NCBI GenBank assembly: GCA_963810095.1
Contig: CAWEMM010000007.1
Coordinates: 160,001-224,000 of the forward strand
From: an uncultured Chloroflexia bacterium
GTDB lineage: Bacteria; Chloroflexota; Anaerolineae; CG2-30-64-16
Length of the DNA stretch: 64,000 nucleotides
Direction of reading: 5' to 3'
The notes below the pieces were generated by a model. The model did no database searches. It was not told the origin of the DNA and saw nothing but the letters and a program-made list of their open reading frames with translations. Positions 15,977-24,486 of the stretch are shown here, in pieces. A program made the translations under genes and the position numbers. The first letter of the stretch is position 1, and the number at the start of each line of letters is the position of its first letter.

Positions 15977-18900
15977 ATGCGCGGGCAGAGAGGCGGCAGC
16001 AACGCTCTCGATCGGAGCGGTGGCCGGGGGAGCAGGCTCCCTGTGGCCATTGTCGGAGTAGGCGCGATCCTTCCTGATGCGCCATGTGCGCCGGCATACT
16101 GGCAGAATATCCGCAGCCGGCGGTACAGCATCACCGAGGTCCCCAGTGACCGGTGGCGGATCGAGGACTATTACGATCCCGATCCGAGTGTCCGGGATAA
16201 GACCTACAGCAAAATCGGCGCCTGGGTGCGCGGCTTTACATTCGACTGGAAGGGCTTTCGGATCCCGCCGAAAGTCGCTGCTGCCATGGATGAAGGGCAG
16301 CAGTGGGCGGTGACCATTGCCGCCGAGGCCCTTGCCGATTACGGGTATCCGGCTCGTTCGCTCGATACGGAGCGCACGGGAGTCATTCTCGGCGCCGCAA
16401 TGGGTGGCGAGCTTCATTACATCACCGGCCTGCGGGTTTTCTTCCCCGAGTACGCCAACGCGCTGGCCGCGGTGGATGAGTTCCGGTCGCTGGGCCACGA
16501 ACAGCGGGCCGCGCTCGTCCAAGGGCTGCGCGGCTGAGGTCGACCGCCGGATCCCCGGCATCAGCGAGGACAGCATGCCCGGCGAGCTGGCGAACGTCAT
16601 CGCCGGCCGGGTTGCCAACGTTTTCAATTTCCGCGGCCCCAATTTCATTGCCGACGCGGCGTGTGCATCGTCATTCGCCGCGCTCGAATCCGCGTGTGAT
16701 CTCCTGGCCCACGGCAAAGCCGACGCCGTCCTGTGCGGCGGCGTCGACCGCAACATGGGCCCCTCAACCTTCGTCAAGTTCTGCAAGATCGGCGCACTCA
16801 GCGCAACCGGCACCCGGCCTTTTGGAGAGGGTGCGGACGGTTTCGTCATGGGTGAGGGCGCGGCCGCGTTCCTGCTGCGCCGCCTGGACGACGCGATAGC
16901 CGACGGCGACAAGATCTACGCGGTCATCCGTGGCATCGGCGCGGCCAGCGACGGTAAGGGCAAGGGCATCACCGCGCCCAACCCACAGGGCCAAATCCTC
17001 GCGGTGCGCCGGGGCTGGGAAGACGCCGGGCTGGATCCGGCGACGTGTACGCTCGTCGAGGCCCACGGCACGAGCACGAAGGTGGGCGACGTCGTCGAGG
17101 TGAACAGCCTGAGCGAAGTCTTTGCCACGGCGCGGCGGGGCAGCATCGGGCTGGGCTCGGCCAAAAGCAACGTCGGCCATCTGAAAGCCGGCGCGGGCGC
17201 GGCGGGACTGCTGAAGGCGGTTTATGCCCTGCATCACAAGGAACTGCCGCCGACGCTCAACGCCGAGCGGCCGAACCCGGCCATCGATTTCTCCTGCACG
17301 CCGTTCCGCCTGGTCCACGAGCCGGCTGCGTGGGAGCCGGATGGTGGGCTGCCGCGGCGCTGCGGCGTCAGCGCGTACGGCTTTGGCGGCACGAACTTCC
17401 ACGTGGTGTTGGAGGAGTACCGGGCCGGGCGAACTCGAGCAGGCGTCGCGCAGGTGAGCAGCGAGCGTCCGGCGGAGGCCGGCAGGTAGTTTTGCCGGGC
17501 GAAGTCGAAGGAGCGGAACTGCTCACGGACCTCTTCGCATCCTTCGGCGCGCACCGCGAAACAGCGGGCGGGAAACGTCAGCGAAGCTGACGCCCGCTCA
17601 GATGCTGGCCGCTGCCACTCCGCGGCGTGCTGGCGCTTGGCGCGGATGACGCCCGCAGGGCTTACGGGGCAGTTGGACGAAGTCGCCGGCAAGGTGGCCG
17701 GCGGCTGGCTTCCGCCGCCGGCCGCGCCCGCCGCGGTCGTGCTGTCTGCAGCCGAGCGCCTGGTGGTCGACTTCAGCACGCCAGAGGAACTGATCGAACG
17801 GATCAAGGCCGCCCGACAGGCGCTGCAGAGCGAGCAGCCCGCGGCCTGGCGGGCGCTGGCAAACCGCGGCATCTTCCGCGGCCGGGGCGAACCGGCGGGG
17901 AAGGTGGCCTTCCTCTTCCCCGGCCAGGGCAGCCAGTACGCCAACATGGGCCGCACGTTCGCAGACCTGCCGCCGTTCGCCGCGACCTTCGCCGAAGCGG
18001 ACGCAGTGCTGACGCCCATACTCGGGAGGCCGCTTACCAGCTACATCTTCAGCGACCCTGACGATGCGGCCGCGCTGCGGGCGGCCGAAGAAGCGCTGCG
18101 CCAGACCGCCATCACGCAGCCAGCCGTCCTGACTCTCGACGTCGCGCTCTGCCGCCTGCTGGCCGCGTACGGTTTCGCGCCGGACATGGTGATGGGCCAC
18201 TCCCTGGGCGAGTATGCCGCGCTGGTCGTCGCGGGCGTGCTGCCCTTTGCCGATGCGCTCGAGGCTGCGGCGGCCAGGGGCGCAGAGATGACGCGGGTGA
18301 GCATGGAAGACAACGGCTGGATGGCCGCGGTGATGGCGCCCCTCGACGTGGTGCAGGACATTCTCGAAGGTGTCGAGGGATATGTCGTGCCGGCAAACAT
18401 CAACAGCCTGGGCCAATGCGTGATCGGCGGCGCAAGCCGGCCGGTCGAGGACGCGATTGCGGCGTTCAAGGCCAAGGGCTTCGAGGCGCAGCGCCTCCCC
18501 GTGAGCCACGCATTCCACACCGCGATCGTCGCCCCGGCCAGCAAGCCCTTGCGCCAGGTCCTCGACCGTCTACACGTGGGGCCCCCGGCGCTGCCGGTCA
18601 TTTCGAACGTCACAGGTGACTTCCATCCCCACGACGTAAAGGGCATTAAGGACTTGCTCGAGCAGCAGATCGCCTCGCCGGTCCAGTGGGTGTTGGGGCT
18701 GGATGCGCTGTACAGGCACGGGTGCCGCACCTACGTCGAGGTCGGACCCAAGCGTGCGCTCAAGGGCTTCGTGGACGAGGTGCTGGGGACGCGCGAAGGC
18801 GTGAGCAGTGTGTTGACCTGTCACCCGAAGACGGGCGAAGCGGCCACCTTCAACCAAGCGCTGTGCAGCCTGTGGGCAGGAGGGTACGGGCTTGGATCGG

Positions 18901-21900: not shown

Positions 21901-24486
21901 GCGCCCTTTTGAGGTGGCCGGGCCCGGCGAGGGGCCGCCCACAGCCCGGCCCGCGCTCCACACTATCGGAACGCTCGAGGATGCCGACCGCATCGCCCGC
22001 CGCGTTCCTCGGGCTGCCCTGCGTCCGGCGCTCGAGCTCTGCAAGCCGACCGGCGTGGTCCTCGAGCAAGGCAGCCGAGTGGTGGTCATGCTGGACGAAG
22101 GGTGTGTGGGCACGGAGCTGGCCCACCGTCTGGCCGAGGCGCGCGTCGAGCCACTGCTGCTGGAGCCCGGCATCGATACTGCGTCCTTAACCGAGCGGCT
22201 GCGCGAGTGGCAGGCACAAGGTTCGATCCAGGGCGTTTACTGGCTGCCCGCGCTCGACGTCGAGCCGTCGCTCGACAGCATGGACCTCTCGGCATGGCGC
22301 GAGCTGAACCGCCGCCGCGTCAAGAACCTCTATGCAGCCATGCGCGCGCTGTACGACGGGGTGGCTCGGCAAGGCACCTTCCTACTGAGCGCAACTCGCC
22401 TGGGCGGCCTGCACGGGTACGGCGAGGACGGGGCAACTGCGCCGCTCGGCGGTGCGGTCACCGGGTTCACAAAGGCCTACACGGCCGAACAGGGGCTGGC
22501 CGCGGCCGGCACCGGTGGAAGCGGTCCGCTGGTCAAGGCGGTCGACGTCGCCGCGGGCGTACCTGATGCCCAGGTGGCGCGCTGGCTCATTGGCGAGACC
22601 CTGGTCGATCCGGGGATCGTCGAGGTCGGCTACCGTGACGGCCTGCGCTTCACAGTCAACCTGGAGGAGGAGCCGGCGCGCGATGGAGGCGCAGGGCTTA
22701 GTGCTCGGTCCCGAGACAGTCGTGCTGGTCACGGGCGCGGCAGGCGGGATCACGAGCGCGATCGTGGCGGATCTCGCCGCGGCAAGCGGCGGAAGCTTCT
22801 ACCTGCTCGACCTCGCGCCGCTGCCTGCGCAGGACGACGAACATGTGCGACTGTTCTGCGCGGGCCGTGAGGCGCTCAAGCAGGCGCTGATCGAGGCTGC
22901 CCGCAGGGCCGGCGGCAAACCAAAGCCTGCCGAAATCGACCGCCAGATCGCGGCCGTGGAGCGCCAGGCGGCCGCGCTGGCGGCGGTGCAAGCCGTCGAG
23001 GCCGCGGGCGGAAAGGCCCACTACCGCAGCCTCGACTTCCGCGATCTCGCCGCGGTGGAGGCCGTCATCGACGAGGTGCGCGCCGCGCACGGCCGCATCG
23101 ACCTGCTGGTCCACGCCGCGGGCCTGTTGATCGATAAAACGCTGCCCGACAAGCAGCCCGAGCAGTTCGACCTGGTTTTCGACGTGAAGGCCGACGGCTT
23201 TTTCAACCTGTTGAAGGCAAGCCAGGCCCTTCCCATCGGCGCGACCGTCGCATTCAGCTCGGTTGCAGGGCGCTTCGGCAATAACGGGCAGGCGGACTAC
23301 TCCGCCGCCAATGACCTGCTCTGCAAACTGACCCACAACCTGTCACACTGGCGGCCGGCAACGCGGGGCATCGCGATCGACTGGACGGCATGGGGCGGCA
23401 TCGGCATGGCGGCCCGCGGCTCGGTGCCGCAAATCATGGAGGCACTCGGCGTCGACATGCTCCCACCCGAGGCAGGCGTGCCAACCGTCCGCCGCGAGCT
23501 GACCTACGGGGCCGCCCGTGGGCGAGGTGCTCATCGCGGGGCGGCTGGGCGCCTGGCTTGAGGAGCGCGATGCCAGCGGCGGCCTGGACCCGAACAGGGT
23601 GGATGCCGCGCTCGGCGCTCAGGCGCGACTGATGGCGGGCCGGCTGGTGGGGACACCCTCCCACGGTGGGGTCGACATCGAGACCACACTCGACCCCCGG
23701 GCACAAGCGTTCCTGTACGACCATGCGCCCGACCCCGACACGCCCTGGCTGCCCGGCGTGATGGCCATCGAGGCGCTGGCCGAGTCGGCGCAGCTGCTCG
23801 CGCCTGACCACCAGGTGGCGGCGGTCGAGGACGTCCGGATGCTTGGGGCCTTCAAGTTCTTCCGCATGGAGCCGCGCACGCTCCATGTCGCGGGAACGGT
23901 GAGGCCGGTGGGCGACGAACTCCATGGGTCCATGGTCCTGCGCTCCGTCACGCAGCCCCTTAGGCCCGAGATGCCGGCGCAGGTGAAGGAGCACTTCGTC
24001 GGAAAGGTCCGGCTCGCCAGGTCGGTCCGCGAGCCCGTTCGCATCTCGCCCGAGGCCGTCGTGCTCCCGGAGTCAGCGCTGACAATCCGGGCGGCCAGCA
24101 TCTATCCGCCCTTCTTTCACGGTCCGGCGTACCGTGTAGTCGACGGGGCCACGGTTGCAGGCGGCCGGGTCGTTGCCCGCATGACCGCGGGCTTACCGCC
24201 CCAGTCAGCGCCGGCCGGTGCGGCAACGCTCATGGCGCCCCGCCTGGTGGAACTTTGCTTCCAGGCCGCCGCGCTCTGGAGTCTGCAGACGGCGGGTGCG
24301 ATGGCCTTCCCTGCAAGCCTCGCCAGCCTGGTCGTCTATCGCCAGGAGCCTCAGGAACCCGCTGACCGGCTCTGGTGCACGCTGGAGACGGGTGACGGAT
24401 CGACTTTTGAGGGCCAGGTGGTGGACGAAGAGGGCAACGTGTACGTGGCGTTGAAGGGGTACCGAACGATCGCCAGGCCGGGCTGA
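15977..24486 (+). CDS. Stand-alone multidomain type I PKS/FAS, PfaA-like: KS-AT-KS-ACP-ACP-KR-DH; about 6 frameshifts
   Basis: KS1: [47 protein letters not shown]2: [25 protein letters not shown]. Two ACPs: [38 protein letters not shown]...LPGV plus a second hot-dog segment. AAGGAG RBS before 15977. Confidence 0.9.
21258..21875 (+). repeat. Near-identical tandem duplication of the ACP-coding sequence (about 21258-21497 and 21636-21875)
   Basis: Both copies encode [67 protein letters not shown](A/V)[11 protein letters not shown], with mostly synonymous differences. Confidence 0.9.

Follow-up and report, generated by a model that had tools for sequence, protein, structure and literature searches.

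The window (the whole stretch of 64,000 nucleotides analysed here) harbors a gene for a large synthase with two ketosynthase (KS) domains and two carrier domains in which Thr replaces the phosphopantetheine Ser. Its layout is that of the Type R secondary lipid synthases, catalogued in 2011 without a known product (Shulse & Allen, PMC3098273). New here are the threonine carriers, the co-occurrence of the family with a wax-ester/TAG synthase (WS/DGAT), and a conserved palindrome in front of the gene. The chances are about even that the protein is a fatty-acid synthase for storage lipids, with an acyl-CoA dehydrogenase (ACAD) acting as its enoyl reductase.

Layout of the synthase and its carrier domains

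The domain order KS-AT-KS-ACP-ACP-KR-DH proposed in the first-pass annotation was borne out at 15977-24486 (+), and all motifs quoted there were found (KS1: DAAC/EAHGT/NVGH; AT: GHSLG/HAFH; KS2: NAAC/SHETY/FTGH).

15977..24486, + strand: Type R-like synthase gene, ~2,833 aa after discounting ~8 single-base insertions
near 16531, 17460-17480, 17610, 17650, 19877, 21130-21180, 22703 and 23520: frame breaks in the synthase gene, all +1
16040..17420, + strand: KS1, type I/PfaA-like (Pfam and motifs; Cys 16662, His 17064, His 17178)
17910..18761, + strand: acyltransferase, malonyl-type (GHSLG with Ser 18201; HAFH at 18507)
19263..20790, + strand: KS2, FabF-like, 562 aa including a C-terminal extension (Cys 20014, His 20458, His 20578)
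21269..21472, + strand: ACP 1 (PP-binding match; Thr codon 21359-21361 at the phosphopantetheine position)
21647..21850, + strand: ACP 2 (Thr codon 21737-21739 at the phosphopantetheine position)
22719..23396, + strand: ketoreductase (TGAAGG; catalytic Tyr within QADYS)
23641..24468, + strand: PKS-type double-hotdog dehydratase (PF21089 and PF14765; His 23722, ELCFQ at 24250)

Frameshift-aware alignment with two intact homologues located eight breaks, each +1; a third homologue shifts the positions of those in the linkers. Deletion of eight bases yields a closed frame of 2,833 aa, and the homologues are single ORFs of ~2,600-3,300 aa, in line with the single ORF of ~2,800 aa expected beforehand. 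In short-read contigs of 97.6-99.5% identity the extra base is absent at 16531, 19877/8 and 23520, a check that covers three of the eight sites, each with one or two low-depth contigs. The synthase is one gene, split by ~8 +1 insertions that are probably assembly errors.

The solved sequences closest to KS1 are KS domains of type I PKSs, and the intact homologue L070 scores above the TIGR02813 PfaA cut-off. HAFH in an AT is linked with malonyl specificity. The DH motifs of the window copy are common to the family. As previously described, the synthase gene lacks ER, TE and PPTase and is accompanied by an upstream NUDIX gene and a convergent histidine kinase gene.

KS2 had been described as catalytically complete, and its sequence agrees with this here and family-wide: Cys is present in 149/150 aligned representative domains, and both His in 149/149. 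Among solved sequences KS2 is closest to FabF (E 4e-28), and the best Foldseek matches are FabF and the actinorhodin KS. Compared with FabF/KAS II (PDB 2gqd, 1j3n, 1e5m), KS2 shows the same fold and Cys-His-His triad at a structural identity of ~20-25%. It is ~150 residues longer, embedded in a type I chain, and carries SHET[YF]TPARGGS in place of NAHGTST, His 20458 being followed by an invariant Glu. The additional length includes a helical hairpin at ~19740-19900 (model helices 161-190 and 194-213), which confirms the long helical insertion noted earlier.

Carrier domains are taken to need serine for phosphopantetheine, canonically at the start of helix II; both ACPs of the window copy have Thr there. 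Thr occupies the cofactor site in 389/389 carriers of 116 close homologues. Among distant representatives it is found in 347/364 carrier profile hits, with Ser in 12, mostly within the same flanks. In alignments with the structures of PigH, CurA and actinobacterial ACPs, the Thr of ACP 1 falls on their Ser. The carrier threonines were not mentioned in the first-pass annotation. As Ser-to-Thr mutants of ACPs are poor PPTase substrates, loading of the threonine is putative. A literature search for Type R and its ACAD partner, with threonine carriers outside its scope, returned no characterisation of either.

Type R members include proteins of Roseiflexus RS-1 (YP_001277223), Solibacter (YP_824341) and Elusimicrobium (YP_001875990) (PMC3098273). 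Common to them is a single PfaA-like gene of the order KS-MAT-second KS fold-ACPn-KR; it occurs in Roseiflexus and Acidobacteria, usually with a PPTase gene behind it and often with carboxylase genes as well (PMC3098273). Roseiflexus sp. proteins are 75% identical to the window copy across KS2, and a 3,243-aa protein with six ACPs, clustering with a Roseiflexus member, matches the ACP6 entry of that catalogue (PMC3098273). A categorically new architecture was rejected, as the layout is that of Type R. Of the distinct, uncharacterised class suggested earlier, the part that stands is that no product has been characterised and that it is probably a reduced acyl lipid. The window copy has two ACPs vs three to six in Type R, and it lacks the PPTase gene that usually follows Type R genes directly and is also present at the C9 copy described below. 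The catalogue lists Type R without DH, and the text searched contains neither "dehydrogenase" nor "threonine" (PMC3098273). It labels the second domain CLF (PMC3098273), whereas the window copy and its family, Roseiflexus sequences included, retain an intact Cys-His-His triad; from these sequences, it looks as if the label is wrong for the family rather than the gene outside Type R.

PUFA synthases possess two active KS domains that divide the chain lengths (PMC11962503), therefore two active KS domains alone are not new. Shared with PfaA-E are a PfaA-like KS1, AT, tandem ACPs, KR, a trans-acting reductase and a PPTase. The window family differs in having both KS domains on one chain, a FabF-like KS2, no CLF, no FabA-type DH/isomerases or PfaB, and Thr carriers; its reductase slot is taken either by an ACAD or by a FabK-like tandem barrel fused to the chain. 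The earlier statement that this is not a canonical PfaA-E system holds: there is no PF07977 match in the genome, no PfaB, PfaC or PfaD gene nearby, and PF03060 hits are weak.

Partner genes, reductase slot and palindrome

A second synthase copy lies in the same genome at G000:C9:244620-253370, between an ACAD and a PPTase gene. The claim that partner genes are missing is thus correct for the window locus and incorrect genome-wide. An ACAD gene immediately precedes the synthase in 58/59 related loci with enough flank. Of 241 genomes of the class, 30 hold KS2 and all of these encode the ACAD, as do only two of the others; in Myxococcota it occurs in 18/19 close-branch holders. This ACAD has the ACAD fold with its catalytic Glu (IYEGT), is linked to ER-less synthases and is absent from ER-bearing ones. 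A PPTase gene follows in 41/48 loci, and supply genes are frequent (carboxyltransferase in 31, biotin carboxylase in 35 of 48); ETF genes adjoin the synthase in only 6/80. The orphan context of the window copy is kept by orthologues in 2/7 congeners: that of G452 has no ACAD or PPTase alongside, that of G458 no ACAD upstream. No ACAD-synthase fusion was found among 150 representatives, no Pfam family other than KS was detected in L038 and L039 with their N-terminal extensions, and ORF inspection found no synthase adjoining the more distant ACADs (47-53%) in G700, G675, G587 and a second G602 locus. A quick KS2 tree places the window copy near G275-like sequences, apart from the C9 copy; a longer quick tree does not resolve this placement, and an AU test does not reject a clade of both (p 0.48), so the window copy may stem from duplication or from a second acquisition.

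In distant members a PF03060 domain is fused at the N-terminus, in 10/13 long representatives (picked for length) and in 21/150 with a profile seeded from nine long ones. This domain finds its best solved matches in FabK enoyl-ACP reductases and keeps E[AC]GGH. Among 40 fetched Myxococcota loci, ten have the ACAD only, seven the full ER only and none both. An adjacent reductase is not obligatory, since 23 of the 40 have neither. In 15 Myxococcota loci there is only a short extension that by eye resembles half the ER, with no match to either of the two families scanned. A quick tree groups the ACAD-linked synthases into a single clade (support 81-92), so the mutual exclusion may represent a single event. 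That KS2 tree is midpoint-rooted, with the FabF outgroup not included, and therefore does not fix the order (ER first, ACAD later).

The upstream region of the window copy contains a further feature:

15761..15777: palindromic candidate operator ATGACGC-N3-GCGTCAT, 200 nt 5' of the start codon

It is unchanged in both congener orthologues. With up to two mismatches it precedes 22/77 ACAD-synthase operons, vs a mean of 4.9 and a maximum of 9 in dinucleotide shuffles, and four Anaerolineae genomes have 10-12 sites each vs 0-3 for a reversed control. In the source genome it lies 5' of the synthase, etfBA, an ETF:quinone-oxidoreductase-like gene, a TetR-thiolase-ACAD-ETF cluster, isocitrate lyase, and a phasin and PhaR-like gene; the phasin pair is preceded by it in both congeners. 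Within two mismatches it is absent before the C9 ACAD and the WS/DGAT gene of the source genome. The candidate regulon consists mostly of beta-oxidation and glyoxylate genes, and opposite regulation could apply. The window site was itself the source of the training pattern for the PWM scan, which makes its rank there partly circular, and Fisher p-values were set aside because kin genomes are not independent. A sigma-70 scan detected no promoter.

Proposed storage lipid synthesis and alternative readings

At least 586 related stretches occur in GTDB genomes, and holders make up 30/241 genomes of the class and 79/301 of a Myxococcota sample. WS/DGAT is encoded by 29/33 holders vs 6/47 non-holders, and within the own family by 5/5 vs 3/16, an association confounded by kinship and genome size; it is absent from the four holders of family f57. 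Domains, motifs, carrier Thr, gene linkage, co-occurrence and palindrome are observed, whereas all activities and the product are inferred. The protein is likely an iterative fatty-acid synthase; for the enoyl reduction that it lacks it likely relies on the family's dedicated ACAD-like flavoenzyme, encoded elsewhere in the genome and acting in trans, and its acyl product likely enters storage wax ester or triacylglycerol.

In the proposed cycle, the C9-encoded PPTase would put phosphopantetheine on the carrier Thr, and the AT would load malonyl supplied by acyl-CoA carboxylase, whose genes neighbour the synthase in relatives but are found at other loci in the source genome. KS1 and KS2 may split elongation by chain length, by analogy with PUFA synthases, long chains going to KS2 via its enlarged helical cap. 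KR and DH would yield a trans-2-enoyl chain, to be reduced by the ACAD with electrons passed from quinol via a membrane Fe-S oxidoreductase and ETF. The window copy has a putative promoter region of its own and would draw on the ACAD and PPTase encoded at C9.

ACADs normally work as oxidising enzymes, and a Sulfolobus ACAD/ETF pair was unable to run reductively (10.1101/2024.07.05.601840). In Euglena wax ester fermentation, by contrast, ACAD, ETF and rhodoquinone reduce enoyl-CoA (PMC6587861). That system resembles the proposed one in its ACAD-fold flavoenzyme, electrons from ETF, enoyl thioester and link to wax esters (PMC6587861), and Bcd-EtfAB, AcrC and CarC (NCBIfam/PDB hits) likewise perform enoyl reduction on an ACAD fold. 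The substrates of all of these are CoA esters, in a beta-oxidation run in reverse, whereas here an ACP-bound substrate in a malonyl-dependent type I synthase is proposed; the family ACAD reaches ~225-237 bits against AcrC, far under the cut-off of 640.

It is unlikely that Anaerolineae, whose FASII has no recognisable FabZ, FabI and FabK, instead obtain their membrane fatty acids mainly, or as a back-up, from synthase plus ACAD. The source genome (88.5% complete) has plsX, fabF, fabH, fabD, fabG and acpP, but no PF07977, FabI or FabK match; PF07977 is missing from all 30 class holders, 24/33 holders lack both FabI and FabK, and carboxylase genes lie within the synthase operon, all in favour of membrane supply. 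However, 205/211 non-holders also lack PF07977, the 16/16 non-holders tested in the own family also lack FabI and FabK, 7/7 Chloroflexia-type holders keep FabZ and FabI, and 13/18 non-Chloroflexota holders keep FabZ. A FabV search gave no signal in any control and is uninformative. A clean replacement of FASII is not supported by this distribution, and the membrane lipid product considered in the first-pass annotation is less supported than a storage lipid.

To the same degree improbable is a specialised lipid (long-chain ketone, diol or unsaturated lipid), with KS2 in a non-routine role (head-to-head condensation, or chain transfer or release via its Glu) and the ACAD oxidising starter or product. 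The synthase has neither a TE nor a second AT, which leaves release unexplained; the SHET Glu is invariant (149/149) where FabF has Gly, and in many members no reductase adjoins the gene. A dehydrogenase, FabX, likewise belongs to the FabK fold (PMC8626469), so that occupation of the ER slot does not settle the direction of the reaction. Yet KS2 retains the Lys and GFG of decarboxylating elongators besides Cys-His-His, the solved relatives of the fused domain are FabKs (no FabX among 10 hits), and a dehydrogenase would duplicate the output of KR and DH. For the head-to-head condensation suggested beforehand no support was found, KS2 being closest to the elongating FabF.

That the window copy works without enoyl reductase (giving an unsaturated or polyene chain) or decays after loss of ACAD and PPTase is very unlikely: its orphan context, break density (~0.94 per kb vs ~0.34 genome-wide) and eight breaks vs three in the C9 copy are outweighed by purifying selection (dN/dS 0.08-0.21 across six segments, in comparison with the G458 orthologue), an open frame in that orthologue as far as its contig end, intact catalytic motifs, 69 departures vs 60 (C9 copy) from 1,062 family-conserved columns, three breaks missing from near-identical contigs, and a palindrome kept as before ACAD operons elsewhere. 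The dN/dS value listed for DH is spurious, as the G458 contig ends before that domain.

Implications for the family

A wider reading is tentative and rather doubtful: Type R would be an overlooked third lineage of single-chain fatty-acid synthases, in which the Thr-borne arm, attached by a private PPTase, insulates it from FASII, and whose ACAD branch would pass electrons from quinol via ETF to its own enoyl intermediates as terminal acceptor. The family is found in Chloroflexota, Acidobacteriota, Actinomycetota and Myxococcota, and some of its proteins bear an Asgard or Thermoplasmatota label; should these archaeal assignments be genuine, they would touch the view that type I FAS is absent from archaea. 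Threonine loading by the PPTase, if true, would be a new post-translational linkage and offer an orthogonal carrier/PPTase pair for engineering. At stake are the use of an ACAD as enoyl reductase of a type I synthase and the origin of storage wax esters and TAG in Roseiflexus, Caldilinea and activated-sludge Chloroflexota, in a large family that has been without an assigned product since 2011. If the wider reading is true, bacteria would possess a counterpart of Euglena wax ester fermentation, with storage-lipid synthesis doubling as anaerobic respiration.

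Integrity and class of the synthase gene

The window spans positions 160001-224000 of contig C7; the assembly of the source genome comprises 6.13 Mb (88.5% complete). Pfam domains delineate one synthase gene in the window:

15977-24486 (+), in pieces: KS, AT, second KS (KS2), two PP-binding domains, KR, PKS-type DH

All synthase motifs quoted in the first-pass annotation were found in the sequence. The single ORF of ~2,800 aa expected there is broken as assembled and emerges once the frame is restored: frameshift-aware alignment with two intact homologues revealed eight breaks, all +1, and discounting these bases yields 2,833 aa. 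With a third homologue, the breaks in the linkers fall at other places. At three of the eight breaks (16531, 19877/8 and 23520), the extra base is missing from short-read contigs of 97.6-99.5% identity, with one or two contigs per site at a depth <5. The assembly as a whole is error-prone: 13 of 33 test genes contain breaks, at 0.34 shifts per kb, and 11 of the 16 shifts are +1; the rate in the synthase is higher, 0.94 per kb. PAS-domain, GAF/histidine-kinase, and ABC transporter ORFs at 24576-27459 (-) and 32127-34412 (+) also look frame-broken, which fits assembly insertions. Orthologues in two of seven congeners adjoin the same NUDIX, ExoIII, and DUF4230 genes, with no acyl-CoA dehydrogenase (ACAD) upstream. 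The orthologue of congener G458 is one open frame as far as its contig end, and dN/dS against it ranges from 0.08 to 0.21 across six segments. The window gene is probably intact and most likely under selection.

A KS2 search returned at least 586 related stretches, 80 of which were kept, mostly from Chloroflexota, the others from Acidobacteriota, Actinomycetota, and Myxococcota. Full-length homologues are single ORFs of ~2,600-3,300 aa with the motifs of the window synthase. The architecture is already known: available excerpts of Shulse and Allen (2011; PMC3098273) describe a Type R lipid synthase, KS-MAT-CLF-ACP(3-6)-KR plus phosphopantetheinyl transferase (PPTase), from Roseiflexus, Solibacter, Koribacter, and Elusimicrobium, with no product assigned. 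The match was made to this described layout. The supposed distinct class was hence catalogued in 2011, while its presumed uncharacterised status holds as far as these excerpts go. The window gene is a real second copy of an uncharacterised Type R synthase. Neither quick tree joins the two copies of the genome as sisters, but the AU test did not reject a single clade for them (p 0.48).

Some relatives carry three KS domains (P0230, P0236, P0242, P0254; P0192, P0222, P0225), in the layouts ER-KS-KS-AT-KS2-ACPn-KR-DH (ER, enoyl reductase) and KS-KS-AT-KS2, one of them labelled Desulfobacterales. Two members are labelled as archaeal and both have threonine carriers: P0154 (MEA2070463.1, "Asgard group archaeon", 19.5 kb contig, ER-KS-AT-KS-ACP-KR-DH-PPTase) and P0148 (MEK6974835.1, "Thermoplasmatota archaeon", 325 kb contig).

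The second ketosynthase and the threonine carriers

The full Cys-His-His set ascribed to KS2 was borne out across the family: of 150 representative domains aligned, 149 keep the Cys, and the two His, together with the Glu following the first, are present in 149/149. FabF enzymes are its closest solved relatives, and the proposed helical insertion reappears in the predicted structure (pLDDT 85) as a hairpin at residues 161-213. This is presumably the position of a cap over the acyl channel of KasA/FabF. Whereas the 2011 excerpts name the second domain "CLF" (PMC3098273), KS2 is non-degenerate here. Two intact KS sets have a precedent in PUFA synthases, where, according to excerpts of PMC11962503, two active KS domains divide chain lengths between them.

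Both ACPs of the window synthase share an 11-residue motif (not shown); in alignment, its Thr stands where PigH, CurA, and other solved carriers have Ser. This Thr occurs in 389/389 carrier domains of 116 close homologues and, among distant representatives, in 347 of 364 profile matches (12 Ser, 5 other or gap), with unchanged flanks around most of the Ser carriers. It is present in all four Myxococcota classes; the excerpts of Shulse and Allen (2011; PMC3098273) make no mention of such carriers. The carriers come in multiple copies, their Thr is strictly conserved, and a PPTase is linked or fused, which suggests that the Thr may be loaded with phosphopantetheine.

Partner genes and the reductase position

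The reported lack of partner genes applies to the window locus and not to the copy on contig C9 (244620-253370) of the same genome, which has an ACAD gene on one side and a PPTase gene on the other. Of the 59 related loci whose flanks are long enough, 58 have this ACAD directly upstream of the synthase; downstream come PPTase (41 of 48 loci), carboxyltransferase (31), and biotin carboxylase (35). In the class sample (n=241), KS2 was found in 30 genomes and ACAD in 32, including all 30 KS2 holders. In a Myxococcota sample, 79 of 301 genomes have KS2, and the 18 with a close ACAD are all among 19 close-branch KS2 holders. One locus (L037) has an Fe-S/CCG oxidoreductase and EtfBA upstream, homologues of which occur in the source genome. 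At L031, L036, L037, L039, and L040, a single-chain acetyl-CoA carboxylase (~1,750-1,850 aa) follows the synthase; outside Chloroflexota, it stands in for the three-gene carboxylase at those loci. Another family member, G367, also has two copies (contigs C3 and C8; L088, L089), each with its own ACAD, PPTase following one and carboxylase genes the other.

Distant members frequently end in a fused PPTase, and 10 of 13 long representatives (21/150 of all representatives) begin with a tandem FabK-like barrel, best matched by solved FabKs and with E[AC]GGH kept in the second barrel. Among 40 of the 79 Myxococcota loci, picked for long contigs, ten have ACAD only, seven a full ER only, and none both, which argues that ACAD sits in the place of the ER; this reading is qualified by the 23 loci without an adjacent reductase (15 with a short ER-like remnant, called by eye, and eight with nothing) and by the ACAD branch being a single clade in a quick, midpoint-rooted tree. 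Menaquinone has a potential of about -74 mV and the enoyl/acyl-CoA couple of about -10 mV; quinol-driven reduction would therefore be downhill. Excerpted reports describe enoyl-CoA reduction by Euglena ACADs via ETF and rhodoquinone (PMC6587861) and a Sulfolobus ACAD/ETF pair incapable of it (bioRxiv 2024.07.05.601840).

Candidate operator and product

A palindrome lies upstream of the window synthase:

15761-15777: palindrome, candidate operator, invariant in both congener orthologues

Within two mismatches it precedes 22 of 77 ACAD operons, against a mean of 4.9 and a maximum of 9 in dinucleotide shuffles, and none of 15 non-ACAD loci. Four Anaerolineae contain 10-12 per genome, where the reversed control gives 0-3; a Chloroflexia-type genome has four, the control none. 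In the source genome, the top palindromes lie ahead of the window synthase and also of an SCP2/acyltransferase operon, phasin plus a PhaR-like gene, isocitrate lyase and malate synthase, a TetR-thiolase-ACAD-ETF cluster, an IclR-like gene, and etfBA; one with a single mismatch precedes the Fe-S oxidoreductase gene. None (≤2 mismatches) was found before the C9 ACAD or the gene for the wax-ester/TAG synthase (WS/DGAT). These fatty-acid and storage genes place the window synthase in a putative common regulon. On contig C6 (252258-263126), a frameshifted TetR gene (252.4-253.2 kb) directly behind a top-scoring palindrome heads a thiolase/HADH/ECH/ACAD/ETF cluster; its product may control a hitherto undescribed fatty-acid regulon of Anaerolineae with the motif TGACRC-N3-GYGTCA. 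A cluster on C9 (687000-700000) with two palindromes comprises patatin, malate synthase, isocitrate lyase, AceK, SCP2, acyltransferase, phasin, and a PhaR-like gene.

Replacement of FASII by the synthase is unsupported. The FabA/FabZ-type domain PF07977 is absent in 235 of 241 class genomes, KS2 holders or not, and all seven Chloroflexia-type holders have both FabZ and FabI. In a panel of 33 holders and 47 non-holders, FabK (E <1e-100) was called in 4 versus 12 and FabI in 5 versus 4; neither was found in the 21 genomes of the own family. The source genome does have plsX, fabF, fabH, fabD, fabG, and acpP; it also contains four MaoC-like genes and, on C11 (78000-144000), a large NRPS/PKS cluster that is rich in carrier domains and includes a PPTase. 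Two class members without Type R (G418, G381) have long PfaC-like ORFs with tandem FabA-like domains.

WS/DGAT occurs in 29 of 33 KS2 holders versus 6 of 47 non-holders, and within the own family in 5/5 versus 3/16, an association confounded by kinship and genome size. The most likely reading, at about even odds, is that the window synthase is a storage-lipid fatty-acid synthase with the C9 ACAD as its enoyl reductase. It can be tested directly on four features: the Thr carriers, the exchange of FabK for ACAD, the association with WS/DGAT, and the candidate operator.
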